This document shows, in pieces, positions 1,332 through 50,609 of a DNA stretch of 64,000 bases. Made by a program: the position numbers and the translations under genes. Below the pieces are notes generated by a model. The model was given only the letters and a program-made list of their open reading frames with translations, ran no database searches and had not been told where the DNA came from. This DNA comes from Bacteroidales bacterium (GTDB taxonomy: Bacteria; Bacteroidota; Bacteroidia; Bacteroidales; WCHB1-69). Numbering within the stretch: position 1 is the first letter of the stretch; every line of letters begins with the position of its first letter. Where the stretch lies: assembly GCA_031553535.1 (NCBI GenBank), contig JAVBLM010000001.1, positions 129,600 to 193,599 on the forward strand, given 5' to 3'.

Positions 1332-1337
1332 TTGATC

Positions 1338-1390: not shown

Positions 1391-1402
1391 ATATGTAAAA
1401 TC

Positions 1403-10628: not shown

Positions 10629-10706
10629 ATAAATTTATATCTTAAACGGAATCCTGATCCTGTTTAGTATTTTGTTATTTTTGCAAAAATAATCAAACAT
10701 ATTCAT

Positions 10707-13075: not shown

Positions 13076-13588
13076 ATGGGAAAAGAAGCCGTAGAAATTG
13101 CAGGTGTAGACGTAAAAAAACTTTTAGAAATGCTAAATGGTGCACTATCGGAAGAATGGTTAGCATATTATCAATATTGGGTAGGGGCACGTTTAATGGA
13201 GGGTCCAATGAGAAGTGAAATTGAACCGGAATTACTCGTACATGCGAATGAAGAACTTAACCATGCGGTTTTAGTAGTTAACAGAATCATCCAATTGAAC
13301 GGGACACCGGTAATAAATCCAAATGAATGGACGAAATTAGCTCGTTGTAAATATGAAGCGCCATCGGATCCTTATGTGGAAGTTATTCTGGAACAAAACT
13401 TAAGGGGAGAAAGATGTGCTATCAAGCGTTATGAAGAAATCGCAAATTATACCGTAGGAAAAGATCATGCAACATATCAAATGGCTGTAACTATTCTTGA
13501 AGATGAATTGGAACACGAACATGATATCGAAGATTGGATCAGAGACTTAGCCAGAATGAAAGAAGACTGGAAAAAAATCAGAATGTAA
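13076..13588 (+). CDS. DPS-like (DPSL) ferritin-superfamily protein
   Basis: 170 aa with ferritin-like di-iron ligand pattern (EE...EELNH...EDELEHEHD) and two Cys (CKYE..., ERCAIKRYEE), as in DPSL/thioferritin proteins. Confidence 0.8.
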   Translation: MGKEAVEIAGVDVKKLLEMLNGALSEEWLAYYQYWVGARLMEGPMRSEIEPELLVHANEELNHAVLVVNRIIQLNGTPVINPNEWTKLARCKYEAPSDPYVEVILEQNLRGERCAIKRYEEIANYTVGKDHATYQMAVTILEDELEHEHDIEDWIRDLARMKEDWKKIRM

Positions 13589-13592
13589 TAGT

Positions 13593-14300
13593 ATGGAACA
13601 AGAAATATTTTCAATGCCCCGTATAGGAGATAATGCTCCTGAATTCAAAGCATCAACAACACAAGGACCGGTTAATTTCCCTTCGGATTATAAGGGAAGT
13701 TGGGTGATATTATTTAGCCATCCGGCTGATTTTACTCCGGTTTGTACATCCGAATTTGTAACGTTTGCATCGATGGAAAAACAATTCAATGAAGCAAACT
13801 GTAAGTTGATAGGTCTTTCTGTAGATGGTTTATACAGTCATATTGCTTGGTTACGCACTATCAAAGAAAAGATTGAATACAAAGGAATGAAGGATGTAGA
13901 TGTCAAATTTCCTTTGATAGATGACGTTTCAATGAACGTTGCTAAAAAATACGGCATGATCATGGAAGGAGAAGCAACTACTTCCGCTGTACGTGCGGTA
14001 TTCGTAATCGATCCTAATGGAATAGTGCGGGCAATTATATACTATCCTTTGAGTTTGGGCCGTAACTTTGATGAATTGTATCGTATTGTTATTGCTCTAC
14101 AGACAGCGGATGAATTCAAAGTTGCTACTCCCGCTGATTGGAGACCTGGAGACGACGTAATTGTTGGCGCAGCAGGAACTTATAATGCAGCACAGGATAG
14201 GATGGATGGAAAAGAATCCGGACTTATGTGCAAAGATTGGTTCTTCTGTACCAAGAAACTTGACAAAGATACTGTTTTGAAAAAAATCATCAAGAAATAG
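13593..14300 (+). CDS. Peroxiredoxin, Prx6-type with C-terminal Cx5C
   Basis: Peroxidatic motif FSHPADFTPVCTSEF. C-terminal CKDWFFC. Confidence 0.9.
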   Translation: MEQEIFSMPRIGDNAPEFKASTTQGPVNFPSDYKGSWVILFSHPADFTPVCTSEFVTFASMEKQFNEANCKLIGLSVDGLYSHIAWLRTIKEKIEYKGMKDVDVKFPLIDDVSMNVAKKYGMIMEGEATTSAVRAVFVIDPNGIVRAIIYYPLSLGRNFDELYRIVIALQTADEFKVATPADWRPGDDVIVGAAGTYNAAQDRMDGKESGLMCKDWFFCTKKLDKDTVLKKIIKK

Positions 14301-14315
14301 CCCTAAGAAAATACA

Positions 14316-14346
14316 AAGGCTTGGTTATAAATCAAGCCTTTTTCCT
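14316..14346 (+). terminator. Intrinsic terminator after the peroxiredoxin gene
   Basis: Stem aaggcttg (14316-14323) / caagcctt (14333-14340) followed by tttcctt. Confidence 0.65.
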
Positions 14347-14397
14347 TTATATTTCAATATTGATTAAATTACTATTTTTGCGGGAAATATAAACGAT

Positions 14398-15180
14398 ATG
14401 AATCAAGACAATTTAAATTGCTGTTTAATACAATCTGATATTCACCCTGTGAATATAAAAGATAATTTGAACAGGTATGAAATGCTTTTGGAAAGCATAG
14501 AAAAGAATCCTGATATTATTATCTTTCCGGAAATGTTTGCATGTGGATTTTCAGAGAATATTGCACAAATTGCAGCAAGCTATACAAAAACATGCCTTGA
14601 TCTTTTATATCAGACTTCTCAAAAATATCATGCCGATATTGTAGCAAGTCTTCCGGTGATAGAAAAAGAATATCTTTTTAATCGACTTGTTTGGATCAGA
14701 GAAGGTAGAATAATTGCTCAATATGATAAAAGACATTTATTCTTCGGGTGTGAAAAACAATTGTGTACAAGAGGGGAAACAAAAGTAATTGTAAATAAAA
14801 ATGGCTGGAATTTTTTACCTTTGGTTTGTTATGATATTCGATTCCCCAACTGGTGTAGAAATCATTATAAAGATGATGCATTCACATACGACTGCCTACT
14901 GTTTATTGCTAACTTTCCAACACCACGTGTCGACACGCTAAAATTATTATTAAGAGCACGTGCGGTAGAAAATCAAGCTTATGTAATAGGAATCAACCGA
15001 ATAGGAGAAGATGGCATCGGGAATAAACACTGCGGAGGAAGCATGGTTATCAGCCCGGCGGGAGAAATAATCGCAGAAGCGCCATACAACAAAAATTTTT
15101 TATTAACTGCGACGATTGGAAAACCTGTTTTAGAGAAATTACGTTCAGATTTTCCTGTCTATAAAGACTGGGATGAATAA
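14398..15180 (+). CDS. Carbon-nitrogen hydrolase (nitrilase-superfamily amidohydrolase)
   Basis: Catalytic E-K-C context: IIFPEMF, YDKRHLF, LVCYDIRFP. Confidence 0.8.
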   Translation: MNQDNLNCCLIQSDIHPVNIKDNLNRYEMLLESIEKNPDIIIFPEMFACGFSENIAQIAASYTKTCLDLLYQTSQKYHADIVASLPVIEKEYLFNRLVWIREGRIIAQYDKRHLFFGCEKQLCTRGETKVIVNKNGWNFLPLVCYDIRFPNWCRNHYKDDAFTYDCLLFIANFPTPRVDTLKLLLRARAVENQAYVIGINRIGEDGIGNKHCGGSMVISPAGEIIAEAPYNKNFLLTATIGKPVLEKLRSDFPVYKDWDE

Positions 15181-15397
15181 AATTTGCTTCTTTAAACATA
15201 TAATTAACAACTTTATTAACAATTATTTTTTTATAAAACAAACGAAATCAGAATAATAATAAAAGTAAATATTTTTTTATCAACAATTCATTATTAACAA
15301 CTTATTAATAATGGAAAATGTTTTACATTTGCAAGAGATTATATTTAGTTTTAGGCATATTGTAAATACACTGGATATAAGCACATAAGAAAACTTA

Positions 15398-15405
15398 TAT
15401 ATTTG
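15398..15405 (+). promoter_or_regulatory. -7 promoter box (TAtaTTTG) upstream of the dcw cluster
   Basis: Exact TAnnTTTG match about 160 nt upstream of the mraZ ATG. Confidence 0.3.
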
Positions 15406-15500
15406 TTCTTTGTTTTTATCTTGTTTTCAAACCATGAGAAATGGATTTAATTTATTGAAAATTAACGGAATGTAGCATGTCCGTATTTTTTTGAAATCCA

Positions 15501-15550
15501 AATGGGAAAAAATGGGAAAAAACGAGAAAAAACGGGAAGAATAGGAAATA
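15501..15550 (+). promoter_or_regulatory. Candidate MraZ operator: five 10-bp phased (T/C)GGGA-type boxes
   Basis: aaTGGGAaaa aaTGGGAaaa aaCGAGAaaa aaCGGGAaga aTAGGAaata. The period is exactly 10 bp and the run ends 12 nt before the mraZ ATG. Confidence 0.5.
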
Positions 15551-15562
15551 AAAAAGAAAAAA

Positions 15563-16039
15563 ATGGTACCGGAAAAAAAGCACAATAGCACAATGGATAG
15601 CAACGGGAGATTCCTGTTACCGGCTTCCATTTTGCGGGAATGGCCCGCAAAAATGGAAGAGGGCTTTGTGATTAGCAGAAGTACTTCCGGTAAATGTTTG
15701 ACTCTCTATCCCATGAAAATTTGGAATACCTACAAGGAAAAGTTAAACAAACTCAATCCTTTTGACCAGAAAAATCGTGCTTATATTCGTGCATTTACTG
15801 GCGGGGCTACCGAAATAAAATCGGATGCCAAAGGACGACTGTTGATTCCTCAACATTTGCAGGAATATGCCCAACTAGGAAAAGAATTATATGTTGTGCA
15901 ATTCAGTTTTTTGGTAGAAATCTGGAATCCGAGTTTATATGATAATTGTAATGTTGATTTCATAGCAAACAATCAGGAATTTATTAGTGAAAAATCGAAT
16001 GAAATTTATGGAGATGGAAGCGAATTCTCTTTATCATAA
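15563..16039 (+). CDS. mraZ: Transcriptional regulator MraZ
   Basis: Two SpoVT/AbrB-like halves (DSNGRFLLPASILRE and DAKGRLLIPQHLQEY). First gene of the dcw cluster. Confidence 0.9.
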   Translation: MVPEKKHNSTMDSNGRFLLPASILREWPAKMEEGFVISRSTSGKCLTLYPMKIWNTYKEKLNKLNPFDQKNRAYIRAFTGGATEIKSDAKGRLLIPQHLQEYAQLGKELYVVQFSFLVEIWNPSLYDNCNVDFIANNQEFISEKSNEIYGDGSEFSLS

Positions 16040-16925
16040 TCCGGTAATGCTTACTCAAAGCATTGTTGGGCTTAATATCAAGCCCAATGGGATTTATGTT
16101 GACCTGACTTTCGGTTCGGGTGGGCACAGTCGTGCCATTCTAGAACATCTCGATGAAAACGGAAAACTATTTGCTTTCGACCAGGATCAGGATAGCAAAC
16201 GTAACCTGATTGATGACTCTCGTTTTGTATTTATCAATCAAAATTTCAAACACATAAAAAATCATCTAAAATTCTATGGTGTTGAAAAGGTGGATGCTAT
16301 ATTAGGTGACTTGGGCGTATCTTCCCACCAATTCGATTGTGAAGAGCGTGGATTTTCTATTCGTTTTGACGGTCCCCTTGACATGAGGATGGATAATAGA
16401 AAATCGTTAAAAGCCAGTGATATTTTAAACACATTCGAAGAAGCTGAATTAATCCGCATATTTTATCAATATGGAGAAATACAAAATGCAAGAAAGTTAG
16501 CAGAACTCATTATTAAAGAGAGAGAGATAATGCCATTCTCCACATCCCAGGATTTAATAAAACGAATCAACATATGCATTCCTAAACACAGAGAATTCAA
16601 ATATTTAGCCCAATTATATCAATCACTTCGTATAGAGGCAAATGATGAAATGAATGCACTGCGTACTCTTTTGGAACAAAGTACCTCGCTGTTAAATTCC
16701 GGTGGAAGGCTGGTTATCATTTCTTACCATTCCCTCGAAGACCGAATGGTTAAGATATTTATGAGAAGTGGAAATTTCAATGATATAATAGAGAAAGACA
16801 TGTATGGAAATATCTTATCTCCATATACTTTGATAAATCGCAAAGCAATTACTCCTGATGAGCAAGAACTAAAAGATAATAATAGAAGTAGAAGTGCAAA
16901 ATTAAGAATCGCAGAAAAAAAATAA
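16014..16925 (+). CDS. rsmH: 16S rRNA (cytosine1402-N4)-methyltransferase RsmH
   Basis: YHNPVML N-terminus and SAM motif DLTFGSGGHS. The track start at 15987 is GTG. ATGs at 16008 or 16014 fit family length better. Confidence 0.9.
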   Translation: MEANSLYHNPVMLTQSIVGLNIKPNGIYVDLTFGSGGHSRAILEHLDENGKLFAFDQDQDSKRNLIDDSRFVFINQNFKHIKNHLKFYGVEKVDAILGDLGVSSHQFDCEERGFSIRFDGPLDMRMDNRKSLKASDILNTFEEAELIRIFYQYGEIQNARKLAELIIKEREIMPFSTSQDLIKRINICIPKHREFKYLAQLYQSLRIEANDEMNALRTLLEQSTSLLNSGGRLVIISYHSLEDRMVKIFMRSGNFNDIIEKDMYGNILSPYTLINRKAITPDEQELKDNNRSRSAKLRIAEKK

Positions 16926-16926
16926 A

Positions 16927-17388
16927 ATGGCAAATAAATTTAGACCGATTGTAAATACTCCTATACCTGAAGAAGACTATTCAGAAATGAATAAGCCTAA
17001 GAATCGGCCTATACCTTCTAAGAAGAAAAAGCCAAAAAGTAAGAGTAAAATAGGAAAAAAAATCCGTAAAGCATTCGATAATATTTTCGGATTGGGAATA
17101 TTGAGGAAAATAAATTTCCGAAAGAATCTCCCCTATTTTATCATGATCATAATTATGATTATTGCATTGATATATAATAATTTGAACACTCAATCAAAAA
17201 GACTGAAAATCGAAAAACTTGAAGATGAAATTACCAAAGTCAACGATTTGCTGATGGACGTAATTGAAGAAGAATACAGTGTGGACGATAAACAGGAGAA
17301 AGAACTTTTACAGACGGCCAAAGAAGAAGGCTTTCAAAGTAACGGATACATTCCATATACAATAAAAGTAGAAAAAAAAGAAAAATAA
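16927..17388 (+). CDS. ftsL: FtsL-like cell-division protein
   Basis: Position between rsmH and ftsI. Lys-rich N-terminus, a single TM (LPYFIMIIIMIIALIY), then a coiled-coil. Confidence 0.6.
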   Translation: MANKFRPIVNTPIPEEDYSEMNKPKNRPIPSKKKKPKSKSKIGKKIRKAFDNIFGLGILRKINFRKNLPYFIMIIIMIIALIYNNLNTQSKRLKIEKLEDEITKVNDLLMDVIEEEYSVDDKQEKELLQTAKEEGFQSNGYIPYTIKVEKKEK

Positions 17389-17395
17389 TAATAAC

Positions 17396-19621
17396 GTGAA
17401 GAACTTTAAAATAAGTGTTTTCTTTGTATATGTCGTATTTCTAATCATAGGAATCATGGCAATGTATCGCATTGTCTCTTTAGCCGTTGCAAAAGGAAAA
17501 TATTACAGGGGCGAAATAGATGATGACAAGGAAATGGTTATTGATGGTCGAATTTTCAAAATAGAAACAAACACAATTTCCGGTAAAAGAGGAAATATTA
17601 TTTCGGATGATGGAACTGTTTTACTATCTACTGTTTATATCTATGATTTATATTGGTATCCATCTTATATATATACAAACAAGGTAAACGACAGTTTATT
17701 CATGTTGAACGTAGATTCGTTAATCCAAATTTTTCATCGGATAAACCCGAAAAAATCAATTGATTCTTATAATAAACTTATCAAAGAAGAATATCTGAAT
17801 TGTCGTCAAGCATACAAAAAAGCTATCAAACAAACAAAAAGCAACGAGAAGAAAGAAAAAGAAAAAGGTTATCTCGCTATTAAGAACCTGCAAAAAGAAT
17901 ATGTTCAAATAAAAGTCTCGAATGTCAGTCGTACAAACGAATGGGTTCGTCAGAAAGATATTGATGAAATTGATTCTTTATTCGCTGCCTGGAAAGGAGG
18001 TGGCAATTTTAGAGGAGGCTGTAAAAAAGACAGACGGGATGTAAGAAGGCAATTGACAGGTGGCTATCCTAAAAGCATTTTAGGAATGTTCGAAAGTGTA
18101 TCTTCCAGCAACAGAACCGATTCTATCATCTTTAAAAAAGGAATAGAAGGGTACTATGATTCTACACTTAGAGGAAAATGTATCACTTACCGCATATTAA
18201 AAGTAAATAATGAAACCGTCCGTCTAAAAGAAAACAGAGATATTTCACCCAGTAATGGCTGCGACGTAGTAACGACTATCAACAACGATATACAACGTGT
18301 AACTAAAAATGCATTAGAGAAACAACTTTTATTATCGGGAGCAGCTTGGGGTTGTGCCGTTGTGATGGATGTAAAAAGCGGAGAAATTAGAGCCATTTGT
18401 AATTTGGACAAAGTAGGGAATATCTATGAAGAACGGATTGACCATGCAACAACCGAACGATATGAACCGGGGTCAACATTTAAATTAATGACTTTATTAG
18501 CAGCATTAGAATCCGGAAAAATAGATACCAATACAATTGTTGAATGCGATAAAGGCAATTATTATTCTCTGAAAAAAGCATTTGTTATTTCCGATAACAA
18601 AGGATTATACAATGCTGCCAGAATGACCCATAAAAATATCAGTTCATTTCTTCTATCTCTAAAAGGAATGTCTTTAGAAAAAGATTTGAAAATCGAAACT
18701 GCACAGGCACGAATCCCGATATTAATTCCGATCACTTCAAAAGAATCTGATTTTCGGAATGTTACACATGGGTATAGCGTTAAAATACCTCCTGTCTATA
18801 TGCTCGCTTATTATAATGCTATTGCTAATGATGGTAAATATATAAAACCTACGTTAGTAAAATCAATAACTTGTCCTGATAAAGGGTCTTCTACCTCTCA
18901 ACATGAAATAATAAATGCAGCTATTTGTTCTCCACAAACAATTGCCAAAGCAAAAGATTGTCTGGAAGCCGTTGTTACTGAGGGAACTGCAAGAAGGGCA
19001 AGAGATAATCAATATTTAGCGTACATTAAAAATAAAGATACAAACATAATACATTATCCATTAATAGCAGGAAAAACAGGCACTGCTTTTATATATGATG
19101 AGAAAGAGAAAAAATATTCTCCTACACTTAAAAATTCTTCTTTTATCGGTTATTTTCCCAGTCAAAAACCAAAATACACTTGTTTGGTATTGGTTTCAGG
19201 AACTCCTTTGGATGCAAGTATTGTCGCTGTACCCGTTTGCAAGGAAATTGCCGAAAAATTAAACATGCATGATATAGAAATCGAATTAAGCGAGTCCAGA
19301 CAGAATAGTAAAAAAAATATTCCTACCAGTCGATTTGCCTATACAAAAGACATACAAACAATCTATAATGAACTTCATATTCCTATAAGCCTGTCAAACG
19401 AAAATCAATATGTTAGTCTTACAAAAAATGATAATAATGATATTGTCTCTATTCCCAGAAAGATTCCAAATCGCTCTGTTGCCGAATTAAAACATGCAAC
19501 AGTAAAAGATGCAACTTATATTTTGGAAAAAATGGGATATACAGTACAAATAAGAGGAAAAGGAAAAGTTAACGACATACAGATAGCCGGAACAACAGCA
19601 ATCGTGTTTTTAAAAGATTAA
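17396..19621 (+). CDS. ftsI: Penicillin-binding protein 3 (FtsI) with C-terminal PASTA domain
   Basis: Transpeptidase motifs STFK, SDN and KTGT. N-terminal TM. C-terminal PASTA-like VKDATYILEKMGYTVQIRGKG. GTG start. Confidence 0.9.
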   Translation: MKNFKISVFFVYVVFLIIGIMAMYRIVSLAVAKGKYYRGEIDDDKEMVIDGRIFKIETNTISGKRGNIISDDGTVLLSTVYIYDLYWYPSYIYTNKVNDSLFMLNVDSLIQIFHRINPKKSIDSYNKLIKEEYLNCRQAYKKAIKQTKSNEKKEKEKGYLAIKNLQKEYVQIKVSNVSRTNEWVRQKDIDEIDSLFAAWKGGGNFRGGCKKDRRDVRRQLTGGYPKSILGMFESVSSSNRTDSIIFKKGIEGYYDSTLRGKCITYRILKVNNETVRLKENRDISPSNGCDVVTTINNDIQRVTKNALEKQLLLSGAAWGCAVVMDVKSGEIRAICNLDKVGNIYEERIDHATTERYEPGSTFKLMTLLAALESGKIDTNTIVECDKGNYYSLKKAFVISDNKGLYNAARMTHKNISSFLLSLKGMSLEKDLKIETAQARIPILIPITSKESDFRNVTHGYSVKIPPVYMLAYYNAIANDGKYIKPTLVKSITCPDKGSSTSQHEIINAAICSPQTIAKAKDCLEAVVTEGTARRARDNQYLAYIKNKDTNIIHYPLIAGKTGTAFIYDEKEKKYSPTLKNSSFIGYFPSQKPKYTCLVLVSGTPLDASIVAVPVCKEIAEKLNMHDIEIELSESRQNSKKNIPTSRFAYTKDIQTIYNELHIPISLSNENQYVSLTKNDNNDIVSIPRKIPNRSVAELKHATVKDATYILEKMGYTVQIRGKGKVNDIQIAGTTAIVFLKD

Positions 19622-19627
19622 ATACAA

Positions 19628-21088
19628 ATGAAAACAATTAAAGAACTAATTAACAATATTTCTACAATTCAGATAATTGGCTTGATCGATAAGCAGATCG
19701 AAGCCATCTGTTTTGATACACGGGAAGTGAAAAGTTCTTCTTTATTTGTAGCGCAAAAAGGGACAAAAGTAGATGGGCACAAATATATTGACCAAGCTAT
19801 TGAAAAAGGGGCAACTTGCATTGTTGCGGAACAACTTCCCGTAACATTACACGAAGATGTGACCTATTTGCAAGTAAAATCTTCTCCTCATACACTCGCT
19901 CTTTTGGCATGTAACTTTTATGGCAATCCTTCCTATAAATTAAAATTAATAGGAATTACAGGAACAAATGGTAAAACAACAACCGCTACCCTACTCTATC
20001 GATTATTTACAAATCTGGGATTTAAAGCAGGGTTATTGAGTACAGTTGAGAATAAAATCGGACAAACGACAATTCCCTCTACACATACAACTCCCGATGC
20101 TATAAAAATAAATCAATTATTATCGCAGATGGTATCCGAGGGCTGTGAATATTGTTTTATGGAAGTAAGCTCGCATGCGATTGTACAAGAACGTATCACA
20201 GGATTACATTTCGTTATTGGAATTTTTACTAACATCACGCATGATCACTTGGATTATCACAAAACATTTAAAGAATATATTGCAGCAAAAAAACTATTTT
20301 TCGATAATCTACCGAAAACAGCATTTGCTTTAACTAACATTGATGATCCAAATGGAAAAGTAATGCTACAAAACACTGCTGCGCAATGTAAAACATATAG
20401 CTTACAAACCATCAATTCTGATTTTAAAGCTAAAGTCAATGAAGATAGTTTGGAAGGAATGAATTTAATCATTGATAACGAAGATGTTTGGTTTAGATTA
20501 ATTGGAAAATTTAATGCTTACAATTTACTTTCAATTTACGCAACAGCTTTACTTTTAGGAGTTAATAAAAAAGATGTATTACGAGAAATGAGCATGCTTG
20601 AGTCAGCAGAAGGCAGATTTTCTACTATCAATAAAAATGGGAAAACGGTAATTATTGACTATGCTCATACTCCTGATGCACTGTTAAATGTTCTTAATAC
20701 GATAAGGGAAATAAGCAAAAACGACCAGAAAATAACTACTGTTGTCGGTTGTGGAGGAGACCGGGATAAAACAAAGCGTCCCGAAATGGCAAAAATTGCA
20801 TACAACCTAAGCGACAAAGTAATTCTTTCTTCTGATAATCCACGAAGTGAAGACCCTGATTCTATTCTCAATGATATGGTTAAGGGAATTCCAAGCGATG
20901 ATGAAAGTAATGTATTTGTTATTGTCGATAGAAAGCAAGCTATTAAATTGGCCATTGCCACATCACAAACAGGAGATATTATTCTGATTGCAGGCAAAGG
21001 TCATGAAAAATACCAAGAAATAAACGGAGTGAAATACGAATTCGATGATATCGAAATTGCTAAAAACTATTTAGAAAATCTAAAATAA
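19628..21088 (+). CDS. murE: UDP-MurNAc-L-Ala-D-Glu--2,6-diaminopimelate ligase
   Basis: GITGTNGKTT P-loop. The DNPR motif (SDNPRSEDP) indicates meso-DAP specificity. Confidence 0.95.
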   Translation: MKTIKELINNISTIQIIGLIDKQIEAICFDTREVKSSSLFVAQKGTKVDGHKYIDQAIEKGATCIVAEQLPVTLHEDVTYLQVKSSPHTLALLACNFYGNPSYKLKLIGITGTNGKTTTATLLYRLFTNLGFKAGLLSTVENKIGQTTIPSTHTTPDAIKINQLLSQMVSEGCEYCFMEVSSHAIVQERITGLHFVIGIFTNITHDHLDYHKTFKEYIAAKKLFFDNLPKTAFALTNIDDPNGKVMLQNTAAQCKTYSLQTINSDFKAKVNEDSLEGMNLIIDNEDVWFRLIGKFNAYNLLSIYATALLLGVNKKDVLREMSMLESAEGRFSTINKNGKTVIIDYAHTPDALLNVLNTIREISKNDQKITTVVGCGGDRDKTKRPEMAKIAYNLSDKVILSSDNPRSEDPDSILNDMVKGIPSDDESNVFVIVDRKQAIKLAIATSQTGDIILIAGKGHEKYQEINGVKYEFDDIEIAKNYLENLK

Positions 21089-21094
21089 TGATAT

Positions 21095-22348
21095 ATGTTC
21101 TACTATCTTTTTAATTGGTTAGATAAGACTTTTAATATACCCGGAGCAGGAGTCTTTCAATATATTTCCTTTCGGACTGCAATGGCGGGATTGGTATCTC
21201 TATTTTTATCATTGATAATCGGAAAATATGTAATCCGATTACTACAAAAGAAACAAATTGGAGAAGATATTCGTGATTTGGGTTTGGAAGGTCAAATACA
21301 GAAGAAAGGAACCCCTACCATGGGAGGGATTATTATCTTATTCAGCATATTAGTTCCGGTTTTATTGTTCAATAAATTGGACAATATCTATATTATTCTC
21401 ATGATTATCACTACGATATGGCTCGGACTACTTGGATTTATCGACGATTATATCAAGGTGGCAAAAAAGAATAAGGGAGGAATTTCTTCCAAGGTGAAAC
21501 TGATAGGACAATCCATTTTAGGTTTGGTAGTTGGTTTGGTTCTCTTTTTCAATCCTAATGTGGTGATAAAAGAAAAACTTCCCGATTCCAATTTTGTAAA
21601 GACAGAAGAAGTATTTCGTGTAGAAAACAGTTCCGATGGAGAAAAAACCAAAACGGCTAAATTTACAAAATCAACCAAAACGACTATTCCATTTTTCAAA
21701 AATAATGAATTCGATTATGCCAGCCTGTTAAAATGGTTGGGCGACGGTTATGAAAAATGGGCGTGGATTATTTATATTCCCATTATTATTTTTATTATCT
21801 GCGCAGTTAGTAACGGAGCTAATCTTACCGACGGGTTGGACGGATTGGCCATTTCAGTCTCGGGAATTATAGGAGCAACCTTGGGAGTATTGGCATATGT
21901 ATCGGGAAACACCATCTTTGCTGAGTATTTGAATATCATGTATATTCCTAATACCGGCGAGCTGATGATTTTTGCCGGAGCACTTGTCGGCGCCTGTTTA
22001 GGATTTTATTGGTGGAATACCTATCCCGCACAAGTATTCATGGGAGATACAGGATCTTTAGCTTTGGGAGGCATTATCGCTGTTTTTGCAATTATTATAC
22101 GTAAAGAATTGTTAATTCCTATTTTATGTGGAATCTTTTTTGTCCAAAGCATCTCCGTAATCGCCCAGGTAACTTACTTTAAATATACAAAGAAAAAATA
22201 TGGAGAAGGAAGGCGTATTTTTTTAATGACCCCGATCCATCATCATTACCAGAAAAAAGGCATGCATGAAGCAAAGATAGTACAACGGTTTATTGTCATC
22301 GCTATCATACTGGCCGTAGTAACCATAGTAACATTAAAATTACGTTAA
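21095..22348 (+). CDS. mraY: Phospho-N-acetylmuramoyl-pentapeptide transferase
   Basis: [13 protein letters not shown] and [12 protein letters not shown] signatures. Polytopic membrane protein. Confidence 0.95.
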
Positions 22349-22365
22349 ACAAAAATATATCAATC

Positions 22366-22911
22366 ATGAAATTTGAAGATTTAATGATCGACCGATCGCA
22401 AACTGTTGCCGAGCAGGCTGCCATTCTAGAAAATAGACTGATTGCCATTCGTAGATCAAATAGACAAGAAATTGTCAACCAGTTTGATAAAGAAGAACAT
22501 CGATTAGAGCATGTCACCCTGTTCCGAGGGGTGAATTTTATCAATGATTCCAAAGCGTGTACAATCAATGCAACTTATTATAGCTTTGAAACCATGAAAA
22601 GTGACATCATCTGGATGGCAGGGGGGAATGATTCTTCAATGAATTATATGGAGCTGATAGGACATGTGTCACAAAAGGTCAAAGCATTGATTTGTATTGG
22701 CAATAACAATAAAACGCTAATGAAAACATTTGTCAAATATATTGCATCTATTCAAGAACAAAAGAACATGGAAGATGCCGTACGGACAGCCTTTTATTCG
22801 GCACAAAAAGGCAATATTGTACTATTATCCACAGGGTGTGAGTGTGATGAATTGTACACAGATTATCAAGAGCGAGGAACTACCTTTAAAAAAGCAATAG
22901 CTCAATTATAA
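22366..22911 (+). CDS. murD: MurD C-terminal-domain-only ORF (murD lacking N-terminal and ATP-binding domains)
   Basis: 181 aa. HRLEHV, GVNFINDSKA, GGNDSSMNY, VLLSTGCECDELYTDYQERG and F.KAI align with the last ~140 residues of MurD. No GxNGKT P-loop. Only 17 nt separate the ORF from the mraY stop. Confidence 0.7.
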   Translation: MKFEDLMIDRSQTVAEQAAILENRLIAIRRSNRQEIVNQFDKEEHRLEHVTLFRGVNFINDSKACTINATYYSFETMKSDIIWMAGGNDSSMNYMELIGHVSQKVKALICIGNNNKTLMKTFVKYIASIQEQKNMEDAVRTAFYSAQKGNIVLLSTGCECDELYTDYQERGTTFKKAIAQL

Positions 22912-22912
22912 A

Positions 22913-24064
22913 ATGGAGAACAAAAAACTTATCGGGAAATTGAAAGGAGACCGCATAATATGGGGAATAATTGTTCTATTATCTGTGTTTTCCATATTCG
23001 TTGTATACAGTACCGGCTCAAAACTAGGGGATCCGTTACATAAAGAAAGTATATGGTTTCTTATTCGCGGACATGTTTTTTATCTTGTCCTGGGATTCCT
23101 GGTAATGTATATTATGAGCAATGTCAATTACAGATGGATCGGTCGGTTATCGAAAATCGGATTTCTGATAGGTTTACTGTTGGTATTTCTAACATTTATC
23201 TTTGGAGAAAATATGGGAGATGCCAAACGAAGTTTACGAATTTTTGGTATCTCTTTCCAAACGATACAATTAGCGGAAGTATTATTTATCATCTATTTTG
23301 CTCAATGGATTTCCCGGGTAAAAGGTGAAATTAACGATCTCAAAAGAGTTCTTTTACCTATGATTATTTATATTGTTGTAACCTGTTTACTCATTACTTC
23401 CCAAAAAACATCAGGGGGAATTATCATGGGTGCTACTTTCTTTGTTCTCTTATTTGTATCTCAACTAAAGAAAAAATACTTTTTTGCTCTATTGGGTAGC
23501 ATTGTAATTATAGGGGGATTATTCCTGTTTGTCGTCATGAATAGCAATACTTCCCTTTTCCGACTTGATACAGCAAAAGCACGTATTGAGGCTTTTACAG
23601 GTAAATCGGAATTAAATAAGGAAACAATCATTACCGAAGCGGCAATTGCAAGAGGCGGTATTTTGCCTAATCCGGGAGGATCGGTTTTGATGGGTTCGGT
23701 AGGTGAAAGCTTCTCCGATTATATTTATGCTTTTCTTGTAGAAGAGTATGGCATTCTGATGGGTATTGTTGTTATTTTATTGTATTTAGCGTTATTTTAC
23801 CGGGTACGGAAAGCAGCAGTGAATATACAATCTACTTTTGGAGCTTATTTATCAATAGGACTAGGATTCTTCATTGTATTTCAAGCATTCACACATATAT
23901 TAGTTTGTATCGGTTATTTTCCTGCAACGGGAGAAACTTTACCAATGATCAGCCGAGGGGGAATGTCTATTTTAACAATGTCATTCTGTCTTGGTATCTT
24001 ATTAAACATAAGTGAAGAAGCCAAAGAAGATAAGAAAAGATTAAAAGAAGAGCAATCGAATTAA
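22913..24064 (+). CDS. ftsW: SEDS-family peptidoglycan glycosyltransferase FtsW
   Basis: Polytopic membrane protein with PATGETLPMISRGGMS. Position in the dcw cluster. Confidence 0.9.
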   Translation: MENKKLIGKLKGDRIIWGIIVLLSVFSIFVVYSTGSKLGDPLHKESIWFLIRGHVFYLVLGFLVMYIMSNVNYRWIGRLSKIGFLIGLLLVFLTFIFGENMGDAKRSLRIFGISFQTIQLAEVLFIIYFAQWISRVKGEINDLKRVLLPMIIYIVVTCLLITSQKTSGGIIMGATFFVLLFVSQLKKKYFFALLGSIVIIGGLFLFVVMNSNTSLFRLDTAKARIEAFTGKSELNKETIITEAAIARGGILPNPGGSVLMGSVGESFSDYIYAFLVEEYGILMGIVVILLYLALFYRVRKAAVNIQSTFGAYLSIGLGFFIVFQAFTHILVCIGYFPATGETLPMISRGGMSILTMSFCLGILLNISEEAKEDKKRLKEEQSN

Positions 24065-24086
24065 ATTAAAAATAAATAATAATAGC

Positions 24087-25199
24087 ATGGCAAAAAAAAT
24101 GATCATTTCAGGTGGTGGCACAGGAGGACATATCTTTCCGGCAATTGCAATTGCCAATGCTGTAAAAGAAGAATTGTCCGATATTGAAATCCTATTTGTA
24201 GGAGCCAATGGACGAATGGAAATGAAACGTGTACCCGAAGCCGGGTTTCCTATAGAAGGATTGGATATTTATGGTCTTCAACGTAAATTGAATTTGAGAA
24301 ATATTCTTGAAAACCTGAAACTTCCTTTCCGTTTGTATCGCAGTAGTAACAAAGCAAAAGAAATCATCAAGAGATTTCATCCTGACGTAGTTGTAGGTGT
24401 TGGAGGATATGCAAGTGGCCCTACATTGAGAGTTGCGGCATCCATGGGAATCCCAACATTGATACAAGAACAAAATTCATATCCGGGAATTACCAATAAA
24501 ATACTGGCAAAAAAAGTTAACGTAATTTGTACTGCTTATGACAACCTGGATCGGTTTTTCCCTGCCGGTAAAATAATCAAAACAGGAAATCCCATTCGAA
24601 AAGATATCCTAAACTCTATAGACAAAAAAGAAGGATATGCTTATTTCCAGTTGGATGAGAATAAGAAAACAGTTGCTGTTGTCGGAGGCAGTTTGGGTTC
24701 CCGTACTATCAATGAAAGTGTTTGTACATTTGTAAAAGAGCTATCAGATAAAAAAGTTCAAATGATATGGCAAACAGGAGAATATTACTATCAGAATCTT
24801 CCGGATGAATATAAAAGGCTGGAAGGAGTAAAAGTAATGCCTTTTGTACAACGGATGGATTATTTATACGGCATTGCCGATGTAGTAGTTTCCCGCGCAG
24901 GAGCTATTGCACTTTCGGAATTATGTGTTGTAGCAAAACCTTGCATCTTAATCCCTTCCCCAAATGTTTCGGAAGATCATCAGACAAAAAATGCAAAAGT
25001 ACTTTCCAATGCAGGAGCCGCTATTTTAATACCTGACAATAAAGCACGCGAAGAACTGAAAGATGCCGTATTTGAACTTATTGTAGATGAAGGTCGCTGT
25101 ACTACTATGAAAGAAAATTTGAAAAAAATGGCACAACCTAATGCAGCCAAACAAATTGCAAAAGAGATAATTAAATTAATGGATAAGAAAAATGGATAA
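24087..25199 (+). CDS. murG: UDP-GlcNAc--MurNAc-(pentapeptide)-PP-undecaprenol GlcNAc transferase
   Basis: GGGTGGHIFPAIAIA N-terminus. The C-terminal region SRAGA...E is typical of MurG. Confidence 0.95.
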   Translation: MAKKMIISGGGTGGHIFPAIAIANAVKEELSDIEILFVGANGRMEMKRVPEAGFPIEGLDIYGLQRKLNLRNILENLKLPFRLYRSSNKAKEIIKRFHPDVVVGVGGYASGPTLRVAASMGIPTLIQEQNSYPGITNKILAKKVNVICTAYDNLDRFFPAGKIIKTGNPIRKDILNSIDKKEGYAYFQLDENKKTVAVVGGSLGSRTINESVCTFVKELSDKKVQMIWQTGEYYYQNLPDEYKRLEGVKVMPFVQRMDYLYGIADVVVSRAGAIALSELCVVAKPCILIPSPNVSEDHQTKNAKVLSNAGAAILIPDNKAREELKDAVFELIVDEGRCTTMKENLKKMAQPNAAKQIAKEIIKLMDKKNG

Positions 25200-26553
25200 A
25201 ATTCCCGTTGATATAAAAAGCATCTATTTCTTAGGAATAGGGGGCATCGGAATGAGCGCCCTTGCTCGCTATTTCCATAGACAGGGAATTTTTGTATCCG
25301 GATACGACAAGACACCCTCTCCCCTGACCGATGAATTGATTGCCGAAGGAATATCCGTTCATTTTGAGGATGATATTTCTCAAATACCGGATTCGTTGTC
25401 CATGGCAATATATACTCCTGCTGTTCCAAAAGGGAATAAAGAATATGAATTCTTACAAAAATCCAGAACACCTTTTTTGAAGCGTTCGCAGTTATTAGGC
25501 TTGCTTACGCATGGAAAAACAACATTTGCAATAGCGGGAACACATGGAAAAACCTCCACGACCGCAATGACGGCACATATACTACATGGAGAAAAAAAAA
25601 TAATTGCATTTATCGGAGGAATTGCCTCCAATTACAACTCTAATCTAATTTACGATAACAATCCGGAGATTATACTTGTAGAAGCGGATGAATACGACCG
25701 TTCTTTTCTAACCCTTCATCCTGATATTGCCGTAATTACAGCAATGGATGCCGACCATTTAGATGTTTATGGAAATAATAACGGTTTGATAGAATCATTC
25801 AACGATTTTGCAAACAACATCAAAAAAGGGGGAACTCTTATTACAAAGAATTCATTAGTAAAGAATATCCATACAAAAGCAAATATAAAAACATACGGTC
25901 TGGAACCCGGTATTTCGGATTATTATGCTACAAACATACATATTAAAAACGAAAAGCAATACTTTGATATAGTTACTCCCAATGGAATTATTGAGAATAT
26001 TTCTTTCGAAGCGGGAGGATTACACAATGTAGAAAATGCAGTAGCGGCAACAGCTATTGCTGATATTGCAAATGTAAATCATCAAACGATAAAAAAACAA
26101 TTAGAATCTTATAAAGGGGTAAAACGGAGATTCGAATATATTATACGTAGAGAAAATTGTATTTATATCGACGATTATGCACATCATCCGCAGGAAATAA
26201 AGGCTTGTATTGCCTCTGCTAAAATGATGCATCCCGGCAAGAAAATATGCGGGATATTTCAACCTCATCTCTATAGTAGAACCAGGGATTTTGCCGATGA
26301 ATTTGCAAGAAGCCTGGAAGAGTTGGACCATGTTATCCTGCTCGACATTTATCCTGCCAGGGAGTTACCGATAGAAGGAGTAAGTTCCAAAATGTTATTG
26401 AAAAAAATAAACAAAACAGAAAAGATATTAGTAAACAAAGAACAACTTCTCCAATATCTGGAGATCATAAAACCGGAGGTGCTTATTACAATGGGAGCAG
26501 GAGACATCGATCGATTAGTAAAGGATATAAAAAAAGTGTTTGATCATGAGTAA
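25192..26553 (+). CDS. murC: UDP-N-acetylmuramate--L-alanine ligase
   Basis: FLGIGGIGMSALA and GTHGKTSTTAM motifs. 453 aa. Confidence 0.95.
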   Translation: MDKIPVDIKSIYFLGIGGIGMSALARYFHRQGIFVSGYDKTPSPLTDELIAEGISVHFEDDISQIPDSLSMAIYTPAVPKGNKEYEFLQKSRTPFLKRSQLLGLLTHGKTTFAIAGTHGKTSTTAMTAHILHGEKKIIAFIGGIASNYNSNLIYDNNPEIILVEADEYDRSFLTLHPDIAVITAMDADHLDVYGNNNGLIESFNDFANNIKKGGTLITKNSLVKNIHTKANIKTYGLEPGISDYYATNIHIKNEKQYFDIVTPNGIIENISFEAGGLHNVENAVAATAIADIANVNHQTIKKQLESYKGVKRRFEYIIRRENCIYIDDYAHHPQEIKACIASAKMMHPGKKICGIFQPHLYSRTRDFADEFARSLEELDHVILLDIYPARELPIEGVSSKMLLKKINKTEKILVNKEQLLQYLEIIKPEVLITMGAGDIDRLVKDIKKVFDHE

Positions 26554-27355
26554 GAAAAACATCATTATTTATTCTATATTCGGCATTATTTTTATTGCAT
26601 GTTTTGTCTTTTATGCTATCCTGTCAAAAGACAAAAAATACACGGAGATAATATATAAGATCGAATATCCATCAGATACTTTATTTACCGAAAAAGAATT
26701 CACTCAATATGTTTCCAAAGTTCATCCGTCAATCATTGGAAAACCTTTTGACAGTGTAAACCTCTCTACTCTTGAGAAAAAAATAGAAAAGTATCCATAC
26801 ATATCCAATGCCGATGTGATCAATAATCGCGGAACATTAATAATAAAGGCTACACAGGAAAAAATTATTGCAAAGGTATTCAATAGTAAAGATCAGCAAT
26901 TTTTCCTGGCAGAGAGTGGGAAACTAGTTCCTAAATCAAAAAACACGGCAGGAAGAATTGTTATTGCGAATGGAAATATAAACAAACAATATACGGATAA
27001 CTATTTTGTCTACAATGAAGACAGTCTCAATAAAGATAAGTCAAAAACAAAATATTCTCAGCTACATATTGTTTGGAAAATGGCATCTTTCATAGAAAAA
27101 GATCCTTTCTGGAATGCACAAATAAGCCAAATCTACGTTAATAATAAACAGGAAATCGAGCTCATTCCTACAATAGGGGATCATGTGATTCTATTTGGAA
27201 GTATTGGGCTTCAAGAAAACATCGATAATGTTATTAAACAACGTTTAGATAATTTAAGAAATTTATATATTGATGGATTTAAAATAACCGGATGGGAGAA
27301 ATATAAATCCATTAACTTAAAATATGGAACAGAAATTTCTTGTGAAAGAAAATAA
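26546..27355 (+). CDS. ftsQ: Cell-division protein FtsQ
   Basis: Position in the cluster, a single N-terminal TM and a POTRA-like region. The track start at 26540 is TTG. ATG at 26546. Confidence 0.75.
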   Translation: MSKKNIIIYSIFGIIFIACFVFYAILSKDKKYTEIIYKIEYPSDTLFTEKEFTQYVSKVHPSIIGKPFDSVNLSTLEKKIEKYPYISNADVINNRGTLIIKATQEKIIAKVFNSKDQQFFLAESGKLVPKSKNTAGRIVIANGNINKQYTDNYFVYNEDSLNKDKSKTKYSQLHIVWKMASFIEKDPFWNAQISQIYVNNKQEIELIPTIGDHVILFGSIGLQENIDNVIKQRLDNLRNLYIDGFKITGWEKYKSINLKYGTEISCERK

Positions 27356-27378
27356 TTAACCCACGATAAATAAATATT

Positions 27379-28773
27379 ATGTTAGATCTAAGTTTCAAAA
27401 AATCGAGAAAAAAGCACCTTGATCAAACAGAAGAAGCAAAAATTGCAGTAGGACTTGACATTGGAACGACAAAAGTCGTCGCATTTGTCGGACAACGGAA
27501 TAAAGATGGGAAAATACATATACTGGGTCACGGCAAACATGTATCACTCGGCGTACAACGAGGACAGGTTATCAATATTGATAAAACGGCCGATGCTATC
27601 AGGCAGGCAATCTCCCAAGCAGAAAATAAAGCCAATATTGACATTGACACAGTAATGGTTGGAATTGCAGGCCAGCATATCAACAACACTCAAATTCTGG
27701 GTGAAATTAAGCGTCGTAATCCGGATTCGGAAATAACAAAAGAAGATGTCCGGATGTTGATTGACGATATGTTTAAGGTAGCGGTAAACCCCGGAACACA
27801 AATCATTGATATTATTCCCCAGGAATATACTGTAGATAGCTTTATCGGTTTGGATGATCCTATCGGTGTATTAGGGATACAGTTAAGTTCGGTATTCAAT
27901 GTAATTACAGGAAATTCGCAACATATCAAAAACATAGCCAGATGTGTCAAACGTTGTAAATTAGAAATGGACGGACTGGTGTTGGAACCGATAGCTTCTG
28001 CTGAAGTTGTTCTGGATAAAAGGGAAAAAGAAACCGGAGTTGCGTTGGTTGACATCGGAGGCGGAACAACAGATATCGCCGTATTTATTAATGGCATTCT
28101 GCGGCACACCGCTGTAATTCCTATCGGAGGAGATGTAATTACCGATGATATCAAAGCTGTATTCAAGGGAATTGTCAAAGAGGAAGCCGAGACATTAAAA
28201 ATAAAACATGGTTCATGTATTCCAAATAAAGGGAATGAAAATCATGTTATTTCTATTCCCGGCATAAAAGGTCGCCCGGCTACCGAAATCCCCGTAGTGG
28301 ATTTGGCAGAAGTAATCGCTGCGCGAACCAAAGAAATTATTCAGCGTATAGCCGATGAGCTTAAAAACGCCAATTGTTTCAACAAGCTTGGCTGCGGAAT
28401 AGTATTAACCGGAGGCGGTGCACAATTAAAAGATATTAAGGAATTTACCGAATACAATACCGGGTTATCCGTACGGATAGGCAATCCGGAAGAAAAGATT
28501 GTAATTGAAAAAGAAGCTGAATGGAATCATCCCATGTATGCTACCGGATTAGGGCTTATGATACTCGGAATAGAGAAAGATGAAGACCTGCATGCAATCA
28601 GGGATGAAAGAGATGAAAACACATCCGCATCTAAAAAGCCAAGTAAACAAATTAGAAATACAGAGGCCAGAGATGGAGAAAGAGATAAATACCGTCCGTG
28701 GGAAAAAATCAGGGAAGTGGTTTATTCATTGGTAAGCGATGATGACATGGACGATGATTTCGAAGATGATTAA
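27379..28773 (+). CDS. ftsA: Cell-division protein FtsA
   Basis: Actin-fold motifs GLDIGTTKV and DIGGGTTDIAVF. Long acidic C-terminal tail (DDDMDDDFEDD). Confidence 0.95.
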   Translation: MLDLSFKKSRKKHLDQTEEAKIAVGLDIGTTKVVAFVGQRNKDGKIHILGHGKHVSLGVQRGQVINIDKTADAIRQAISQAENKANIDIDTVMVGIAGQHINNTQILGEIKRRNPDSEITKEDVRMLIDDMFKVAVNPGTQIIDIIPQEYTVDSFIGLDDPIGVLGIQLSSVFNVITGNSQHIKNIARCVKRCKLEMDGLVLEPIASAEVVLDKREKETGVALVDIGGGTTDIAVFINGILRHTAVIPIGGDVITDDIKAVFKGIVKEEAETLKIKHGSCIPNKGNENHVISIPGIKGRPATEIPVVDLAEVIAARTKEIIQRIADELKNANCFNKLGCGIVLTGGGAQLKDIKEFTEYNTGLSVRIGNPEEKIVIEKEAEWNHPMYATGLGLMILGIEKDEDLHAIRDERDENTSASKKPSKQIRNTEARDGERDKYRPWEKIREVVYSLVSDDDMDDDFEDD

Positions 28774-28819
28774 CTAATAATTATAATACAGTATATATAA
28801 CATTAAAAACTCATTAACA

Positions 28820-30151
28820 ATGATAAATTTTGACAACGGAAATCTAATGGAAATAACACCTTATATGGATGATCAAACAGCCGGAACATCTTCAATAATT
28901 AAGGTGATTGGTGTTGGCGGCGGCGGAAGCAATGCGGCCCGGCACATGTACAATATGGGTATTATCGGGGTTGATTTTATGATATGCAACACCGACAAAC
29001 AAGCCTTGGAAAGTAATCCTATCCCTATAAAAATACAATTGGGGAAAAATGGATTAGGCGCCGGAGCGATCCCTGAAGTTGCCAGAGATGCAGCGCTGGA
29101 CAGTGAAGAAGAAATAAAAGCTGCCCTTGCCGGAACAAAAATGTTGTTTGTAACAGCCGGTATGGGTGGAGGTACCGGAACAGGAGCCTCCCCTATTGTG
29201 GCTTCTATTGCCAGAGACTTGGGGATTTTAACGGTCGGTATTGTTACTTATCCGTTCAACTTCGAACAAAAAGACAAGTTTGACCTTGCCAATGAAGGGA
29301 TTAATGAATTAAGCCAAAACGTAGATGCCCTTATCGTCATTAAAAACGAAGCATTAAAAAGCTTTTACCCTGATTTAAAGCTATCCAATGCTTTTGCAAA
29401 GGTAGATGATGTTTTGTTAATCGCAGCAAAAAGCATTGCGGAACTTATCACGTTGGAATCCATTATCAATGTGGATTTTAATGATGTAAAAACTATTTTA
29501 CAGAACAGCGGAACCGCATTGATCGGTTCGGGAGAAGCTGAAGGGGAAGATAGAGCCTTTAAAGCAGTGGAAGCAGCAATTAACAGCCCGTTATTAGATC
29601 AAAATTCAATCTATGGTGCTGAAAAGTTATTATTCTTTATTTCATATAGCGACGATAATCAGATTACCATAAACGAACTGGAAAAAATAACCGAGGAACT
29701 GGAAAACAAAACCTGTACTACAAGTAAAAAACTAATCTGGGGACATGGAATTGACGATAACCTCGGAGATAAAGTACGGGTAACTGTCATTGCTACGGGA
29801 CTACACAACAATACAGGGACATATGGAAGCAAGGCATCTCCCGGAAAGGAAAATGCACCAGGTGAACAGGTTAAAATCCCTTATGATACGGATAACGCAC
29901 CTAAAGAAGAAAAGAAAACAAATGAATCTACGGTTATTAAAGTTCCTCTAGGCGAGGTTCCGGATAATAACCAATTACGAGGCAAATCGGAAGAAGAAGT
30001 AACGGAATATCTTAATAAGCCTGCTTATATCCGGGAAAGGGAATTGAAAAAATTCGACAGTAACTCGAATGATGAAATCTCCAATTACAAAGCAGGGGCA
30101 AACGGATTAGAATGTAATGCACCCTCTTTTCTAAACAACGTGGTTGACTAA
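28820..30151 (+). CDS. ftsZ: Cell-division GTPase FtsZ
   Basis: GVGGGGSNA and the tubulin signature GMGGGTGTGA. C-terminal PSFLNN peptide. Confidence 0.95.
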   Translation: MINFDNGNLMEITPYMDDQTAGTSSIIKVIGVGGGGSNAARHMYNMGIIGVDFMICNTDKQALESNPIPIKIQLGKNGLGAGAIPEVARDAALDSEEEIKAALAGTKMLFVTAGMGGGTGTGASPIVASIARDLGILTVGIVTYPFNFEQKDKFDLANEGINELSQNVDALIVIKNEALKSFYPDLKLSNAFAKVDDVLLIAAKSIAELITLESIINVDFNDVKTILQNSGTALIGSGEAEGEDRAFKAVEAAINSPLLDQNSIYGAEKLLFFISYSDDNQITINELEKITEELENKTCTTSKKLIWGHGIDDNLGDKVRVTVIATGLHNNTGTYGSKASPGKENAPGEQVKIPYDTDNAPKEEKKTNESTVIKVPLGEVPDNNQLRGKSEEEVTEYLNKPAYIRERELKKFDSNSNDEISNYKAGANGLECNAPSFLNNVVD

Positions 30152-50583: not shown

Positions 50584-50609
50584 TATTTCATATTTTCGAG
50601 AACATTATA

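Follow-up and report, generated by a model that had tools for sequence, protein, structure and literature searches.

A conserved free-standing MurD domain 3 in the murD slot of a Bacteroidales dcw cluster

MurD, the ligase of ∼440-450 amino acids (aa) that adds D-glutamate (D-Glu), is an antibiotic target and is regarded as an enzyme that is universal, essential and made as a single polypeptide. In the DNA examined here, a stretch of 64,000 nucleotides (nt) from a Bacteroidales bacterium (assembly GCA_031553535.1, contig JAVBLM010000001.1, positions 129,600 to 193,599; hereafter the window), the place of murD between mraY and ftsW in the division and cell wall (dcw) cluster is taken by an open reading frame (ORF) of 181 aa, which we call MurD-C. 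Relative to E. coli MurD (PDB 1UAG/2UAG/3UAG), MurD-C is homologous to residues ∼260-437, which comprise the last helices of the central domain, the hinge and domain 3; it keeps the HRxE, NDSK, GG, LLS, Y422 and RG elements and the Rossmann-like fold of domain 3. It differs in that domain 1, which binds UDP, and almost all of domain 2, with the P-loop, Mg and carbamyl-Lys sites, are missing, and in that H267, N268, N271, T321, K348, S415 and F416 have been lost or replaced.

There is a precedent for the re-use of Mur ligase domains in multi-protein arrangements in MurT, from the MurT/GatD lipid II amidotransferase: MurT is a Mur-ligase-family protein that is missing a canonical domain and works only with its partner. 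However, MurT retains the ATP-binding central domain and is catalytic, whereas MurD-C has no central domain. Rearranged Mur ligase architectures also occur as natural fusions within dcw clusters (MurE-MurF, MurC-Ddl; PMC10214165); such fusions keep all of their catalytic domains, whereas MurD-C represents a fission or truncation that leaves a single domain, predicted to be non-catalytic. The literature that we searched describes neither a free-standing MurD domain 3 nor domain-only paralogues beside murD. On balance, we lean towards the view that MurD-C is a repurposed, non-catalytic MurD domain 3 and that the real D-Glu ligase is encoded elsewhere.

The assignment of MurD-C to the last third of MurD is based on several comparisons. 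Its only Pfam match is Mur_ligase_C (PF02875; E = 4e-9, 37.8 bits against a cut-off of 28.4), and the NCBIfam equivalog model for murD, TIGR01087, aligns residues 16-178 with positions 277-439 of the 441 in the model (E = 9e-38), at a score (130.5 bits) that fails the curated equivalog cut-off of 211.95. Similarly, the MurD chains in PDB align with MurD-C from ∼residue 270-300 to the chain ends, and the first residue of MurD-C is the equivalent of ∼residue 258 of MurD. These results agree with an earlier note on this DNA, made from the sequence alone, which had proposed that the ORF is derived from MurD and limited to the end of the central domain and domain 3. The motifs that the note had listed are found in MurD-C (HRLEHV, GVNFINDSKA, GGNDSS and VLLSTGCECDELYTDYQERG), and H45, R46, E48, D61 and K63 are present, as is expected of the domain 3 fold. 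An AlphaFold2 model of MurD-C has a mean predicted local distance difference test score (pLDDT) of 67, with values of 70-88 across most of the second half (from ∼residue 90 onward); a Foldseek search with this model gave MurD structures for all of the top 33 PDB matches, over ∼145 aligned columns.

The N-terminal domain and almost all of the central domain of MurD are missing at this position. We found no match in MurD-C to PF08245, the central ATP-binding domain with the GxxGK[ST] P-loop, and the N-terminal Rossmann-like domain that binds UDP-N-acetylmuramic acid (UDP-MurNAc) is absent both from MurD-C and from every frame between mraY and MurD-C. Indeed, as the note had pointed out, there is no space for these domains, since the ATG start of MurD-C lies just 17 nt past the mraY stop codon (22346-22348). 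The reading frame is open no further upstream than position 22270 and has no alternative start codon before 22366, the stop codon falls within the coordinates listed for MurD-C, and ftsW starts 1 nt beyond it. The length and the placement that had been claimed for the ORF proved to be exact (Table 1).

Table 1. Coordinates of MurD-C, its parts and its intact neighbours in the window
Feature	Coordinates	Strand	Evidence or remark
MurD-C, free-standing MurD domain-3 gene, 181 aa	22366..22911	+	PF02875 alone; TIGR01087 277-439 of 441
N-terminal tail (residues 1-44), relic of last central-domain helices	22366..22497	+	GxHNxxN lost; low-confidence helix, residues 3-38 (AlphaFold2)
Hinge/ATP-contact motifs HRLE (residues 45-48 = H301-E304) and NDSKAC (residues 60-65 = N316-T321, T321 to Cys)	22498..22560	+	48-member alignment
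GGNDSS (residues 86-91), GGxDKG loop without Lys348	22621..22638	+	Alignment
CECDELY (residues 158-164), D-Glu pocket rebuilt with Cys for S415 and Asp for F416	22837..22857	+	Alignment
Spacer from mraY stop to MurD-C start, 17 nt, AT-rich	22349..22365		Site of ∼0.8 kb of missing murD (N-terminal and central domains)
murE, 486 aa, meso-diaminopimelate type, intact	19628..21088	+	NF001126, 627 bits vs 373; three Mur ligase domains
mraY, 417 aa, intact, directly upstream of MurD-C	21095..22348	+	TIGR00445, 325 bits vs 192; Pfam
ftsW, 383 aa, intact	22913..24064	+	PF01098, E = 2e-49
murC, 453 aa, intact	25192..26553	+	TIGR01082, 382 bits vs 335; three Mur ligase domains

MurD-C belongs to a conserved family of proteins. 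A search of 5.8 billion proteins with MurD-C returned 52 matches of 175-224 aa, every one of which has Mur_ligase_C as its only domain, and at least 48 of these protein clusters form the window's own family (48-100% identical, 175-215 aa). The gene order mraY, short ORF, ftsW is found in all loci with enough flanking sequence (L002-L006, L010-L012 and L093-L111), with a spacer of 13-30 nt between mraY and the short ORF (relatives have equivalent spacers of 13-40 nt); the exceptions are L008 and L009, in which two unrelated genes lie between them. Across 81 loci, the distance from the mraY stop to the murD stop is bimodal, with one group at 545-590 nt and the other at 1328 nt or more. Comparison of the dcw clusters of relatives, a check that the earlier note had named, thus places the short ORF in the same slot and at the same length in independent assemblies (L001-L012 and L093-L113 for the slot). 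The ORF is intact, without frameshifts or stops, in ∼35 loci. In some family members (P0014, P0016, P0027, P0034 and P0036), which reach 205-215 aa, the N-terminal tail is extended by a charged stretch of 25-35 residues placed directly ahead of the HRLE hinge (alignment columns ∼112-170); the tail can therefore accommodate inserted sequence and is probably flexible, either as a helix or as a linker.

Purifying selection clearly acts on MurD-C, at a strength comparable to that on its essential neighbours. Selection was assessed from Nei-Gojobori counts of nonsynonymous and synonymous differences (pN/pS) between the window and L010; synonymous divergence (dS) estimated by this method (NG86) is saturated for most pairs, which precludes a precise dN/dS. 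The pN/pS values are 0.127/0.691 for MurD-C, compared to 0.124/0.626 for murE, 0.092/0.678 for mraY and 0.090/0.655 for ftsW. The family has also acquired newly conserved residues, namely Cys415, Asp416 and a C-terminal AIAQL.

To relate these residues to function, we aligned 59 full-length Bacteroidota MurDs and 48 members of the family with E. coli MurD, the numbering of which, used throughout, was checked against known motifs. Residues H267, N268, N271, H301, R302, D317, K319, T321, K348, C413, S415, F416, Y422, R425 and G426 are invariant in all 59 full-length proteins. In the family, H301, E304, D317, Y422 and G426 are invariant, and R302 and K319 are kept in 45 and 36 members, respectively. 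Arg302 and the loop of residues 294-304 form the hinge that contacts the alpha-phosphate of ADP (PMC4816537), and the D-Glu pocket is composed of Lys348, Thr321, Ser415, Leu416 and Phe422 (PMC3527612). Within the pocket, K348 is conserved in none of the 48 family members, T321 is replaced by Cys in 31, S415 by Cys in 45 and F416 by Asp in 43, which results in a family-specific CxCD motif (CxC[DGQN] in 36 members); the window protein has C65, S90, C160 and D161 at the positions of T321, K348, S415 and L/F416. The adenine-binding residues H267, N268 and N271 are also gone from the family, and the region of the GxHNxxN motif reads DRSQTVAE in the window.

From this alignment, MurD-C is predicted to keep the surface by which domain 3 contacts the central domain and ATP, and to have lost the canonical amino-acid site, which appears to have been rebuilt in a way that the family conserves. 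MurD-C alone is predicted to be incapable of acting as a D-Glu ligase, because it has no UDP-MurNAc domain, no P-loop and no adenine-binding Asn, and because T321, K348 and S415 are gone. A similar pocket sequence is found in L173 (protein P0183, 10001-10549), which branches apart from the window family and reads SPACECSD where that family has GCECDE (window 22837-22845). The C-E-C found in the former D-Glu pocket of both may be due to convergent evolution, and might be a sign of metal binding or redox activity at this site.

Genes for domain 3 alone are found in other Bacteroidota as well. A HMMER scan of 1.84 billion representatives yielded 290 proteins with E ≤ 1e-30, many of them 170-190 aa long with a decayed GxHN. 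Outside the window family, the short ORF stands in a cluster with no full murD in L007, L035 (‘Bacteroidetes bacterium 4572_112’), L060 (a metagenome-assembled genome (MAG) labelled Flavobacteriales, in which the ORF has 172 aa and a different start point), L064, L173, L174 (P0437, on a 407-kb JGI contig) and L175/L176 (P0355, NCBI GCA_964395505.1). In a second arrangement, short ORFs accompany murD. L026 has a complete murD of 443 aa followed by one domain-3-only ORF of 168 aa (10515-11021) upstream of ftsW, while in L079 a complete murD is followed by two tandem ORFs of 174 aa (10517-11041) and 172 aa (11043-11561) and then by ftsW. In L177, a domain-3-only ORF of 173 aa (566-1087) lies between ftsW and a MurD gene that is cut by the contig edge and is 98% identical to P0351, a partial MurD of 245 aa that reaches into the central domain. 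All four of these accessory ORFs match only the last third of TIGR01087 and have lost K348, and they seem to have arisen by partial tandem duplication of murD, limited to its 3′ third. MurD-C has the same character, since it consists of domain 3 only, has a comparable length (∼170-180 aa for this type; 168-174 aa in these loci), lies directly upstream of ftsW and has a degenerate pocket from which Lys348 is lost. It differs in that a full-length murD lies directly upstream of the accessory ORFs, whereas there is none in the window cluster. The existence of degenerate domain-only ORFs beside an intact murD means that a free domain 3 can be an accessory protein.

The short forms also differ among themselves in their decay and in their placement in trees. 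K348 is lost in L035, L060, L007 and L173 as well, and is retained only in L064, L174 and L175, the branches of which are as short as those of full-length proteins in a tree of C-domains. Our neighbour-joining trees have weak backbones and were used only to establish the monophyly of the window family (bootstrap 94) and to place the other short forms roughly. In a concatenated MurE+MraY+FtsW+MurG+MurC tree, the window family is one clade on a long stem, L173 and L174 lie beside the full-length lineage L038, and L175 lies elsewhere; L060 falls among Flavobacteriales in the MraY tree. The ORFs of L026, L079 and L177 do not group with the window family in the C-domain tree, in which backbone support is weak. 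The long stem of the family and the long terminal branches of short forms are expected after a change of function. Because of these rough placements, the different start point and the different decay patterns, we read the short forms as indicating several independent origins of domain-3-only genes. Separately, we observed a 207-aa protein, P0186, with an extracytoplasmic function (ECF) sigma-factor region 2-like N-terminus joined to a complete MurD domain 3, which could be a real fusion or a chimera of assembly or gene calling.

The start codon of MurD-C corresponds to an ancestral Met inside normal MurD. Of the full-length Bacteroidota MurDs, 51 of 59 have a Met nine residues before GxHN, precisely at the start position of MurD-C, and the ORFs of the window family and of L035, L064 and L173-L175 all begin with a Met that lies within the chain of normal MurD. 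A deletion from the start of murD to this internal Met codon would leave a translatable domain-3 gene, and we propose that the first ∼265 codons of the dcw-cluster murD were lost and that translation restarted at the conserved internal Met. Gene callers often start a murD truncated by a contig edge at the same Met, which gives rise to spurious 182-aa ‘MurD C-domain’ entries. We therefore did not accept every ∼182-aa database protein as a short form, since P0049 (L090) and P0379 (L177, 15-563) are contig-edge fragments of full-length MurD; short forms were counted only where mraY and the ORF share a contig and the locus was inspected.

The remainder of the dcw cluster is that of a standard Bacteroidota, in the order mraZ, rsmH, ftsL, ftsI, murE, mraY, MurD-C, ftsW, murG, murC, ftsQ, ftsA, ftsZ. 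The neighbouring mur and fts genes had been described as full length, and indeed murE, murC and mraY exceed the curated cut-offs, as does murG (297 bits against an equivalog cut-off of 250); the best NCBIfam match of ftsW is the ftsW model TIGR02614, at 179.6 bits, which is under the cut-off of that model (337.5). The product of MurC is the substrate of MurD, and the product of the MurD reaction, UDP-MurNAc-L-Ala-D-Glu, is the substrate of MurE. Since MurC, MurE, MraY and MurG pass their equivalog cut-offs, the pathway, and hence D-Glu addition, would still be in use; likewise, since MurE needs UDP-MurNAc-L-Ala-D-Glu and the pathway is under selection, D-Glu must still be added.

We searched for the gene that might carry out this step. 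Among the six-frame ORFs of the window, phmmer searches with murE, murC and the short ORF found no further MurD-like gene, and the 9 kb upstream of the window (L091) contain MutS and hydrogenase genes and no murD. A hidden Markov model of the N-terminal and central domains, built from 10 full-length Bacteroidota MurDs, found only murE and murC in the window and in 535 kb of short-form loci (six frames, ∼20 kb per locus). When 5.8 billion proteins were searched with this N-terminal and central-domain profile, a search that was not aimed at the relevant genomes, the best 120 of 8000 matches were ordinary MurDs, and the four shorter proteins proved to be fragments, due to contig edges or frameshifts; the E-value threshold was passed by every one of the 8000 scored candidates. 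The ORFs inserted in the dcw clusters of L008 and L009 were considered as diverged halves of MurD and rejected, since they are Bro-N or Schlafen/AlbA_2 proteins or have no match.

Two explanations, an artefact and a decaying pseudogene, can be set aside. A spurious 0.8-kb deletion, introduced in assembly or binning, might be suspected because the source assembly is that of an uncultured organism and because some 182-aa database ‘proteins’ are the contig-edge pieces described above. However, the Logan assembly of run SRR23967707 (L001), which covers window positions 13057-30052 with 18 mismatches in 16,996 nt (99.9% identity), has an identical junction of mraY and MurD-C, and the junction recurs, flanked by mraY and ftsW on one contig, in many diverged relatives whose assemblies come from ENA, JGI, NCBI and Logan. 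Misassembly, which the earlier note had wanted checked, is thus effectively excluded, and we assign it a negligible probability. (A fusion of MraY to MurD-C by frameshifting was also considered and rejected, as the overlapping open frames are not conserved among relatives.) The note had further proposed that the ORF could be a decaying or repurposed remnant. If it were a decaying pseudogene, either open by chance or retained only for DNA signals needed by ftsW expression, the loss of substrate-binding residues would be explained, as would the faster evolution of the family's C-domain compared to the C-domains of full-length MurD. But the ORF has the same frame and length across at least 48 clusters, with identities as low as 48%, its pN lies far under its pS, as it does for the essential neighbours, and Cys415, Asp416 and AIAQL are conserved as new residues; neither frameshifts or stops (in the ∼35 loci), nor length drift, nor a dN/dS near 1 is seen. 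Decay is contradicted by the selection data and is effectively excluded, being very improbable. Thus, the ‘decaying’ half of that description fell, while ‘repurposed’ fits better, given that substrate residues are lost or replaced in a conserved way, and given the presence elsewhere of domain-only ORFs beside intact murD.

The remaining explanations concern how D-Glu is added. We favour repurposing, with the ligase encoded elsewhere, because the D-Glu and adenine ligands are lost while new residues are conserved, because accelerated divergence was followed by purifying selection, and because equally degenerate paralogues lie beside intact murD. Several observations weigh against it: no full-length murD was found for any short-form-only genome in the 535 kb searched (∼20 kb per locus); the structure model is of only moderate confidence; and the ATP and hinge residues H301, R302, E304 and D317 are nearly invariant, as they would be in a domain that closes on a central domain supplied in trans. 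In addition, L064, L174 and L175 keep every catalytic residue of domain 3, and L175 also keeps GKHNxxN, a pattern that fits either a split enzyme or very recent truncations. These residue patterns and the missing full-length murD, together with purifying selection as strong as that on essential neighbours and an intact MurE, whose substrate contains D-Glu, speak for a split MurD, in which the N-terminal and central domains would come from a separate gene and the 181-aa protein would supply domain 3 in trans to form an active ligase for D-Glu or an altered substrate. We consider a split enzyme unlikely, though worth serious consideration: the window family has lost T321, K348 and S415, which bind D-Glu, as well as N268 and N271, which bind adenine and whose positions lie in the retained tail; equally degenerate ORFs coexist with intact murD; and an ORF limited to the N-terminal and central domains was seen neither in any locus nor, in the untargeted profile search and therefore as weak evidence, among its best 120 of 8000 matches. 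It is more doubtful still that there is no MurD-type core at all and that D-Glu is added by another route, for example by another Mur ligase scaffold such as MurC with MurD-C as alternative specificity domain, by a di- or tripeptide salvage ligase, or by a non-homologous enzyme, with MurD-C as the surviving or re-tooled part. The absence of MurD N-terminal and central domains from the window and the related loci, the conserved rather than random rebuilding of the pocket (CxCD) and the similar C-E-C of L173 would agree with such a scheme, but it rests entirely on a gene not found in incomplete data, MurC and MurE are ordinary proteins above their equivalog cut-offs, and precursor salvage would make both of them dispensable, yet both are conserved. 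We know of no precedent for D-Glu addition without a MurD-type core. A bolder version, which we hold to be similarly improbable, is that a Bacteroidales clade, and other Bacteroidota independently, has no canonical MurD; domain 3 with its Cys/Asp site would then dock in trans on a MurC-like core or a half-enzyme to add the second stem residue, or would be a regulatory pseudoenzyme that couples precursor synthesis to FtsW. If that were so, the conserved internal Met of murD would be a latent, reusable start site for a module.

MurD-C is a selectively maintained and presumably expressed protein, made up of MurD domain 3 and a short tail that is modelled as helical. If it is the repurposed domain that we favour, it would serve as a pseudoenzyme-like accessory module of the cell-wall and division operon, presumably co-transcribed with mraY and ftsW, and might act by binding a protein or a ligand through the hinge face (HRxE, NDSK) and the rebuilt Cys/Asp-rich pocket. 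The enzyme that adds D-Glu would then be encoded at a place not covered by the window, most likely by an unlinked full-length murD.

Some other features of these loci were observed. In L008 (2999-9965 and 11762-16260; also L009 and L102), from a MAG labelled Lentimicrobiaceae, unrelated genes break into the dcw cluster at several points. The inserts in L008 include a Schlafen/AlbA_2-HATPase_c_4-winged helix-turn-helix protein, an N6_N4 methyltransferase, a PDDEXK_3 protein and a RhuM-like protein, as well as, in the interval from mraY to the short murD, two genes for Bro-N or unknown proteins; L007 has a Bro-N gene upstream of mraY. The presence of mobile- or defence-type genes within an essential operon (L008, L009, L102) is unusual. 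In the window itself, giant ORFs of 2772 aa and >3870 aa (41781-50099 and 52387-64000, the latter running past the window end) have only weak CARDB-like matches and probably encode huge surface proteins; a tetratricopeptide repeat protein (50571-52286) lies between them. Upstream of htpG (window 30-3253 and L091 5585-10960), an [FeFe]-hydrogenase-type cluster encodes NuoE/NuoF-like subunits, a HydA-like protein and a second Fe_hyd_lg_C protein with an extra iron-sulfur domain, which points to a fermentative anaerobe.

Annotation of the family is inconsistent. JGI names its members ‘UDP-N-acetylmuramoylalanine--D-glutamate ligase’ or MurD, NCBI lists them as ‘hypothetical protein’ (from Bacteroidales or Lentimicrobiaceae MAGs), and one related domain-only match is named ‘cyanophycin synthetase, partial’ at NCBI. 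Therefore, pathway reconstructions may wrongly score MurD as present in these lineages. The substrate-binding domain of MurD alone forms a conserved family that takes the place of murD in a dcw operon that is intact in other respects, and such domain-only genes appear to have arisen several times in Bacteroidota, either replacing murD or beside it. If MurD-C acts in trans, domain 3 would be an exchangeable specificity module and this would be, to our knowledge, the first natural split Mur ligase. If MurD-C is a pseudoenzyme, it would point to an unrecognised non-catalytic role of MurD domain 3, for example as a scaffold or regulator between the Mur ligases, MraY and FtsW.

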